The position numbers and the translations under genes are program-made. Under the pieces are notes generated by a model. That model was not told the origin of the DNA and searched no databases. It saw only the letters and a list, made by a program, of their open reading frames with translations. This document shows, one piece after another, positions 53,804-53,912 of a stretch of 64,000 nucleotides of DNA (position 1 is its first letter; the number at the start of each line of letters is the position of its first letter). The stretch comes from Escherichia coli. GTDB lineage: Bacteria; Pseudomonadota; Gammaproteobacteria; Enterobacterales; Enterobacteriaceae. Location of the stretch: the NCBI RefSeq assembly GCF_044324875.1, contig NZ_CP172185.1. One strand, written 5' to 3'.

Positions 53804-53810
53804 TCCGCCC

Positions 53811-53847
53811 CCTGGGTGTATATACAGTTATGCTGTGAGTATATACA
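53811..53847. promoter_or_regulatory. Tandem LexA boxes in the lexA promoter
   Basis: Reverse strand reads CTGTATATACTCACAG and CTGTATATACACCCAG, 5 bp apart. Confidence 0.85.
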
Positions 53848-53912
53848 GCAAAAGGCGATTTTGGAACCATAAACTGCACAATAAACCAGAGATTTATCGA
53901 AATCTGGAAGGG

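Follow-up and report, generated by a model that had tools for sequence, protein, structure and literature searches.

The spacer in front of the Escherichia coli lexA gene contains two LexA-like palindromes in immediate succession, and the locus raises the question of what these sites are, whether both of them act on lexA, and how far their control reaches into dinF, the gene that follows. The window analysed here is a stretch of 64,000 nucleotides of E. coli chromosomal DNA in which the locus lies on the minus strand. Read in that direction, the gene order is dgkA (54281..53913), lexA (53803..53195, with its stop codon at 53197..53195), dinF (to 51797) and yjbJ, and positions 53804..53912 are exactly the 109-bp intergenic spacer between dgkA and lexA. 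The protein encoded directly downstream of the palindromes has 202 amino acids, is annotated as LexA WP_000646078.1, carries the Pfam domains LexA_DNA_bind and Peptidase_S24 and is identical to E. coli LexA. The Pfam domain MatE was found in DinF, and the identity of DgkA was likewise confirmed; no tRNA genes were found within the window. In a sequence search the segment 53100..54000 was 100% identical to E. coli NZ_LR778147.1, and 5425 of 5426 complete E. coli genomes contain it once.

Both sites read in the direction of lexA, on the minus strand. The upstream (distal) box, TGCTGTATATACTCACAGCA, occupies 53850..53831 and the downstream (proximal) box, AACTGTATATACACCCAGGG, occupies 53829..53810; each consists of a palindromic 16-bp core of the form CTG-N10-CAG with an AT-rich centre, set within a 20-bp site. 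The upstream core, CTGTATATACTCACAG (53848..53833), has no mismatch to CTGT-N8-ACAG, and the downstream core, CTGTATATACACCCAG (53827..53812), has one. The two cores are separated by the 5 bp CATAA (53832..53828), the two 20-mers by a single base pair, and their centres by 21 bp; on the minus strand the spacer ends in ...TTCCAAAATCGCCTTTTGCTGTATATACTCACAGCATAACTGTATATACACCCAGGGGGCGGAATG. A sequence-only reading of this DNA had described two SOS boxes 5 bp apart upstream of lexA, which is correct, and had, without naming the strand, given their span as 53811..53847, which is displaced by 1 bp from the cores at 53812..53827 and 53833..53848.

Palindromes of this kind might be nothing more than chance AT-rich promoter sequence, and the bare motif does little to exclude this reading, as CTGT-N8-ACAG with at most one mismatch occurs 18 times in the window compared to 16.9 expected and is thus not enriched window-wide over shuffled sequence. 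Because the bare consensus is not enriched, only a weighted score distinguishes real sites from chance matches. Such a score was obtained as the Berg-von Hippel heterology index (HI), using a matrix built from 17 E. coli boxes (PMC3009722, Table 4) from which lexA was excluded and in which the training sites themselves score 0.27-8.94. With this matrix the upstream box (HI 6.43) and the downstream box (HI 7.99) rank first and second among the 63,981 positions of the window. The chance expectation per dinucleotide-shuffled window is 0.003 sites for HI 6.43 and 0.023 sites for HI 7.99, and pairs of sites with HI of 12.6 or less spaced 15-30 bp apart were found in none of 300 shuffles. Both values are also well within a cut-off of about 12.6 that Lewis et al. 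are said to have set for LexA sites in 1994, computed there with another matrix, so that the boxes do not fail a heterology-index threshold. The weighted scores, the ranks, the adjacency of the two sites, their conservation and published mutagenesis together make a chance origin of the palindromes extremely improbable, and the recognition of the motif from the letters alone is validated by the scores.

The value of the index depends on the matrix, and by score alone the downstream box is the weaker call. More specifically, the two lexA boxes of Salmonella have been reported with HI values of 7.94 and, for the proximal box, 14.48, and a FIMO scan missed the proximal box (PMC8072944). Since the proximal Salmonella box scores 14.48 with another matrix, it is mutagenesis and conservation that support a function of the downstream box.

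The third-ranked position in the window is the uvrA/ssb box, TACTGTATATTCATTCAGGT (32873..32892, HI 8.21), which lies 85 bp upstream of the uvrA start and, as the same matrix recovers it, acts as a positive control within the window. It belongs to the same motif class as the lexA boxes and has a comparable HI; it differs from them in being a single site, common to two divergent genes and without autoregulation. The fourth-ranked LexA-like site (10195..10214, HI 10.54) was rejected as a chance match on the U-tract of an intrinsic terminator that follows an ORF ending at 10165, which by its position we take to be fdhF. Elsewhere in the window, Rfam models matched the sRNA sraL (28780..28920, plus strand), naRNA4 (61524..61594, minus strand) and a SECIS element (8430..8484, plus strand), the last presumably within fdhF, judging from its position.

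Comparison with the known lexA operator is direct. Operators I and II of E. coli K-12 lexA consist of the same 20-mers, at the same distances of 6 and 27 bp from the ATG, with the same overlap of the -10 element and the same embedded Dcm site; no difference was found, the window being only the reverse complement of K-12. The comparison with the curated operator that the sequence-only reading had proposed thus gives identity, as sequences matching both 20-mers are listed for lexA in Tables 4 and 7 of PMC3009722. The two boxes of Salmonella lexA lie 6 and 27 bp from its ATG (PMC8072944), distances equal to those in the window. The published box sequences, ATG distances and mutagenesis all agree with the interpretation as lexA operators (PMC3009722, PMC8072944, PMC7440846), and the two boxes are almost certainly the operator through which LexA regulates its own transcription unit, lexA(-dinF), in E. 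coli.

What was observed in this analysis is that the boxes are present, how they score, where they lie and how well they are conserved, together with the identities of the genes; repression by each box, the lack of detectable cooperativity, the co-transcription of dinF and its Rho dependence are taken from the literature. The lexA operator was reportedly first described in 1981-82, and its occupancy by LexA, the lexA-dependent activity of the promoter and the effects of mutations in CTG or CAG have been shown. The lexA double operator is therefore real and already known in full experimental detail, it is one of the most familiar operators in bacteria, and the window carries the standard E. 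coli allele. What is mildly new concerns the start of dinF with the stem-loop in the spacer before it, and the operators of Erwiniaceae, spaced 19-20 bp apart.

Several LexA boxes around one promoter are likewise found at recN (three boxes), at ydjM (two) and at colicin genes (PMC8072944 Table 1, PMC7440846). In contrast to these, the gene regulated at lexA encodes the repressor itself, which makes the arrangement one of negative autoregulation, and its boxes are of similar strength and exactly adjacent.

The arrangement of the boxes relative to the lexA promoter suggests how each of them could act. The -10 hexamer TATACT (53838..53843, minus strand) lies inside the upstream box and is invariant across species, and a -35 hexamer TTCCAA (53861..53866, minus strand) precedes it by a 17-nt spacer. 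The promoter was placed by eye and with the numbering of PMC9210283; a simple sigma-70 scan missed it, and TTCCAA has only three of the six consensus bases. The Dcm target cytosines of the lexA region have been numbered +17, +45 and -116 (PMC9210283), and these positions match the CCWGG sites at 53815..53811, 53787..53783 and 53947..53943. Because the published numbering maps onto these sites, the lexA transcription start is inferred to be 53830 or 53831 on the minus strand, that is, placed to within 1 nt at the single base pair that separates the two 20-mers. By this count the upstream box extends from about -20 to -1 and contains the -10 hexamer, the downstream box extends from about +2 to +21 of the transcript, and the 5' UTR is about 27 nt long, with the Shine-Dalgarno G-run adjoining the 3' end of the downstream box. 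An overlap of one lexA operator with conserved sequences bound by RNA polymerase has also been described (PMC7440846).

The first of these Dcm sites, CCAGG (53811..53815, extended to CCCAGGG), lies inside the downstream box. It is methylated specifically in stationary phase; methylation there is hindered by LexA, and lexA expression is unaffected by it (PMC9210283).

In the mechanism that emerges, two LexA dimers occupy the two adjacent 20-bp SOS boxes. The dimer on the upstream box, which covers the -10 element up to the start site, would block RNA polymerase at the promoter, and the dimer on the downstream box, over +2 to +21, would block it just past the start, the steric nature of both effects being suggested by the positions of the boxes. 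Upon DNA damage, RecA filaments promote self-cleavage of LexA, the boxes empty, and lexA is induced several-fold; the figure reported in Salmonella is 6.9-fold (PMC8072944). Ongoing synthesis of LexA then allows the SOS regulon to be shut off quickly once the damage signal is gone, in keeping with the resetting of the regulon by renewed LexA synthesis (PMC6590174). Mutagenesis, GFP reporters and EMSA show that both lexA operators repress, and about equally (PMC7440846).

The conservation of the operator was surveyed by a LexA protein search with one genome per species, which gave 80 Enterobacterales loci with LexA identities of 78-100%, 79 of them usable. Both boxes are present in 74 of the 79 species, at -47 and -26 from the ATG, and the upstream core is kept in essentially all 79. 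In an alignment of the 79 distinct upstream regions, the columns of the boxes, the -10 hexamer and the Shine-Dalgarno run are about 99% conserved compared to 30-70% in the flanks, and a GGTT at -65..-62, in the -35 region, is about 99-100% conserved. Within E. coli, 5347 of 5425 genomes match a 136-bp stretch containing the operator at 99% identity or more. Judged from these alignments, both operators appear to be under strong purifying selection. One box is degraded in five of the 79 species (a MAG, two Photorhabdus, Candidatus Pantoea persica and an Arsenophonus), and two boxes are thus not indispensable. The losses (loci L041, L062, L065, L078 and L082) arose through point changes in the CTG or CAG triplet, and one strong box (HI 5.4) is left in the Arsenophonus.

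Why two operators are kept is a question on which the 79-species survey carries modest weight. One explanation is cooperativity: dimers bound to one face of the helix, their sites two turns (21 bp) from each other, would touch, and this would account for the conserved arrangement. The literature cited by PMC7440846 contains repeated proposals of cooperative binding, which has also been modelled (PMC5152588), and a centre-to-centre spacing of 21 bp is retained in 62 of the 74 two-box species. In the remaining species the spacing is 20 bp (four species) or 19 bp (eight species), and all 12 belong to the Erwiniaceae and comprise every member of that family sampled, from the genera Erwinia, Pantoea, Tatumella, Mixta and Rosenbergiella (L040, L042, L047, L051, L055, L056, L059, L066, L068-L070 and L072; boxes at about 2954..3000 of these loci). 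Spacings of 19 and 20 bp would rotate the sites by about 35-70 degrees relative to each other, which argues against strict phasing, and their tolerance in Erwiniaceae fits the published lack of cooperativity. More directly, a matched single operator equals the wild-type double operator in induction, kinetics, dynamic range and fitness (PMC7440846). Cooperativity between the boxes is therefore an unlikely explanation for their arrangement.

A further alternative is that the operator comprises three sites rather than two. A weak LexA-like site (53872..53891, minus strand; core CTGGTTTATTGTGCAG at 53889..53874; HI 14.06, rank 13) lies upstream of the -35 hexamer, 41 bp upstream of the upstream box, and would on this account also bind LexA and repress. 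It is probably the 'operator III' proposed in older literature, and a site with HI 12.96 occurs at the same position in three Enterobacter-like genomes. Its score is nevertheless at chance level, as 4.6-8.5 sites this weak are expected per 64 kb of shuffled sequence, and conservation of its CTG and CAG triplets reaches only about 30-50%. Point mutations abolish the function of the first two operators, whereas the putative third is non-functional, its mutation having no effect and the site giving no repression (PMC7440846). Its score, poor conservation and published behaviour led to its rejection as a functional operator, and a repressing third site is very improbable. The reading preferred here is the double operator, with each box repressing in its own right.

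Upstream of the promoter, no convincing terminator was found between dgkA and the lexA promoter (53868..53912), as there was no scan match and the predicted fold gave a z of -1.5. Read-through from dgkA into lexA thus seems possible, and the downstream operator (+2 to +21) may, more speculatively, also act as a roadblock to it. The predicted RNA structure of this region is no better than that of shuffled sequence, with z values of -1.5 for the dgkA-lexA spacer, +0.8 for the 5' UTR and +0.3 for the first 90 nt of lexA. At 53733, 70 nt into the lexA ORF, lies a published Term-seq 3' end (K-12 4257185); it was recorded in two growth conditions, shows no dependence on Rho and scores low as an intrinsic terminator, and folding revealed no significant local structure around it. 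The 3' ends antisense to dgkA that appear with large read counts in PMC7815308 look like a strand-wide scaling of the table and were not considered a notable RNA.

The extent to which this operator also governs dinF depends on how the two genes are joined. The sequence-only reading had placed them in one operon without a separate dinF promoter; the first statement is borne out by published data, and the second is consistent with the scans. Tiling arrays show lexA-dinF as one continuous UV-induced transcript (PMC3009722), dinF lacks a separate operator and is co-transcribed with lexA (PMC6590174), and RNA polymerase occupancy is raised across both genes (PMC3739934). No LexA-like site was found ahead of dinF, the lowest HI in 52900..53809 being 19.1. 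Likewise, no sigma-70-like site was found on the minus strand in 53803..53100, a result of little weight given that the same scan missed the lexA promoter. In 50 of the 79 species dinF still follows lexA, and the linkage is absent in Yersinia, Photorhabdus, Xenorhabdus, Proteus, Providencia, Morganella, Pectobacterium, Dickeya, Brenneria and Budvicia.

The distance between the genes is a different matter. It had been read as 19 nt, and it is 18 nt if dinF starts as in the K-12 model (459 aa, ATG at 53176) but 72 nt in the RefSeq PGAP model (441 aa, 51797..53122 on the minus strand, ATG at 53122). The shorter distance would mean that lexA and dinF are tightly coupled, with translation of dinF from the ATG at 53176 and no regulatory element between the genes. 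This agrees with the K-12 annotation of a 459-aa DinF, and the frame from that ATG is open in the window. The comparative evidence favours the later start. Among the 51 loci with dinF downstream of lexA, the codon aligned to Met19 of E. coli DinF is ATG or GTG in 44 and is usually the sole in-frame start after the preceding stop. The K-12-type ATG has no counterpart in any other genus among the surveyed loci; it is out of frame in E. albertii owing to a 1-nt indel, and in L004, a divergent Escherichia genome, an in-frame TAA comes after it. None of the 5425 complete E. coli genomes has the haplotype with this TAA, all of them being only 90-95% identical to L004. The ATG at 53176 moreover lies within the 5' arm of a hairpin of -24 kcal/mol. 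Given the conservation of the start, the broken frame in E. albertii and the stop in L004, the 72-nt spacer and the 441-aa DinF appear better supported than the K-12 model, and a tightly coupled 18-nt junction is quite unlikely. For annotators, the points of possible use are that the conserved dinF start lies 72 nt after lexA, not 18 nt, and that the spacer contains a stem-loop.

This stem-loop (53145..53184, minus strand) consists of 13 pairs (53184..53155) around the loop GCCU, followed by GUUUUUCAUC, and was found as a terminator-like match with a predicted dG of -24.1 kcal/mol and a z of -5.5. Eight of the 13 pairs are G-C and the U-tract UUUGUUUUUCAUC follows, so that it has the form of an intrinsic terminator. 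Of the 51 loci that carry dinF, 46 have a stable hairpin, with a dG of -15 or below, no more than 90 nt from the lexA stop. The sequences of these hairpins are unrelated between genera, and their U-tails are mostly poor.

Published transcript mapping bears on what the stem-loop does. In PMC7815308 (supplement 2) a Rho termination region of lexA-dinF peaks at K-12 4257949, equivalent to 52969 in the window and inside dinF, with a Rho score of 6.1 (p = 5.6e-32). Upstream and downstream coverage is 322 and 54 without the Rho inhibitor bicyclomycin and 288 and 295 with it, and the published Term-seq 3' ends include none at the spacer hairpin (PMC7815308). Since bicyclomycin restores the coverage ratio to 1.0, intrinsic termination appears to be weak and the fall in coverage Rho-dependent; on these grounds, and with no 3' end listed, the hairpin was rejected as an efficient intrinsic terminator. 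Expression of dinF thus occurs by read-through from the lexA promoter, attenuated about 6-fold in a Rho-dependent manner.

In these respects the spacer stem-loop resembles, and may belong to, the protective stem-loops described by Dar and Sorek (PMC6061677), with which it shares a stable stem-loop after the stop codon and Rho termination a few hundred nucleotides downstream. The E. coli lexA-dinF hairpin differs from that class in also having a good U-tract, like an intrinsic terminator. It is tentatively suggested, as a proposal that stands at somewhat less than an even chance, that the K-12 start of dinF is mis-annotated and that the stem-loop of the 72-nt spacer, conserved in position and not in sequence, would together with Rho termination early in dinF give rise to a stable mRNA of lexA alone and hold lexA:dinF at a ratio of about 6:1. 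A part for the stem-loop in dividing expression between lexA and dinF was not found described in the literature examined. In Citrobacter (L005-L008, 3610..3720) the lexA-dinF spacer is longer, at 121-131 nt, and contains REP-like palindromes (GCCGGATAAGACG...CATCCGGC) in place of the E. coli hairpin.
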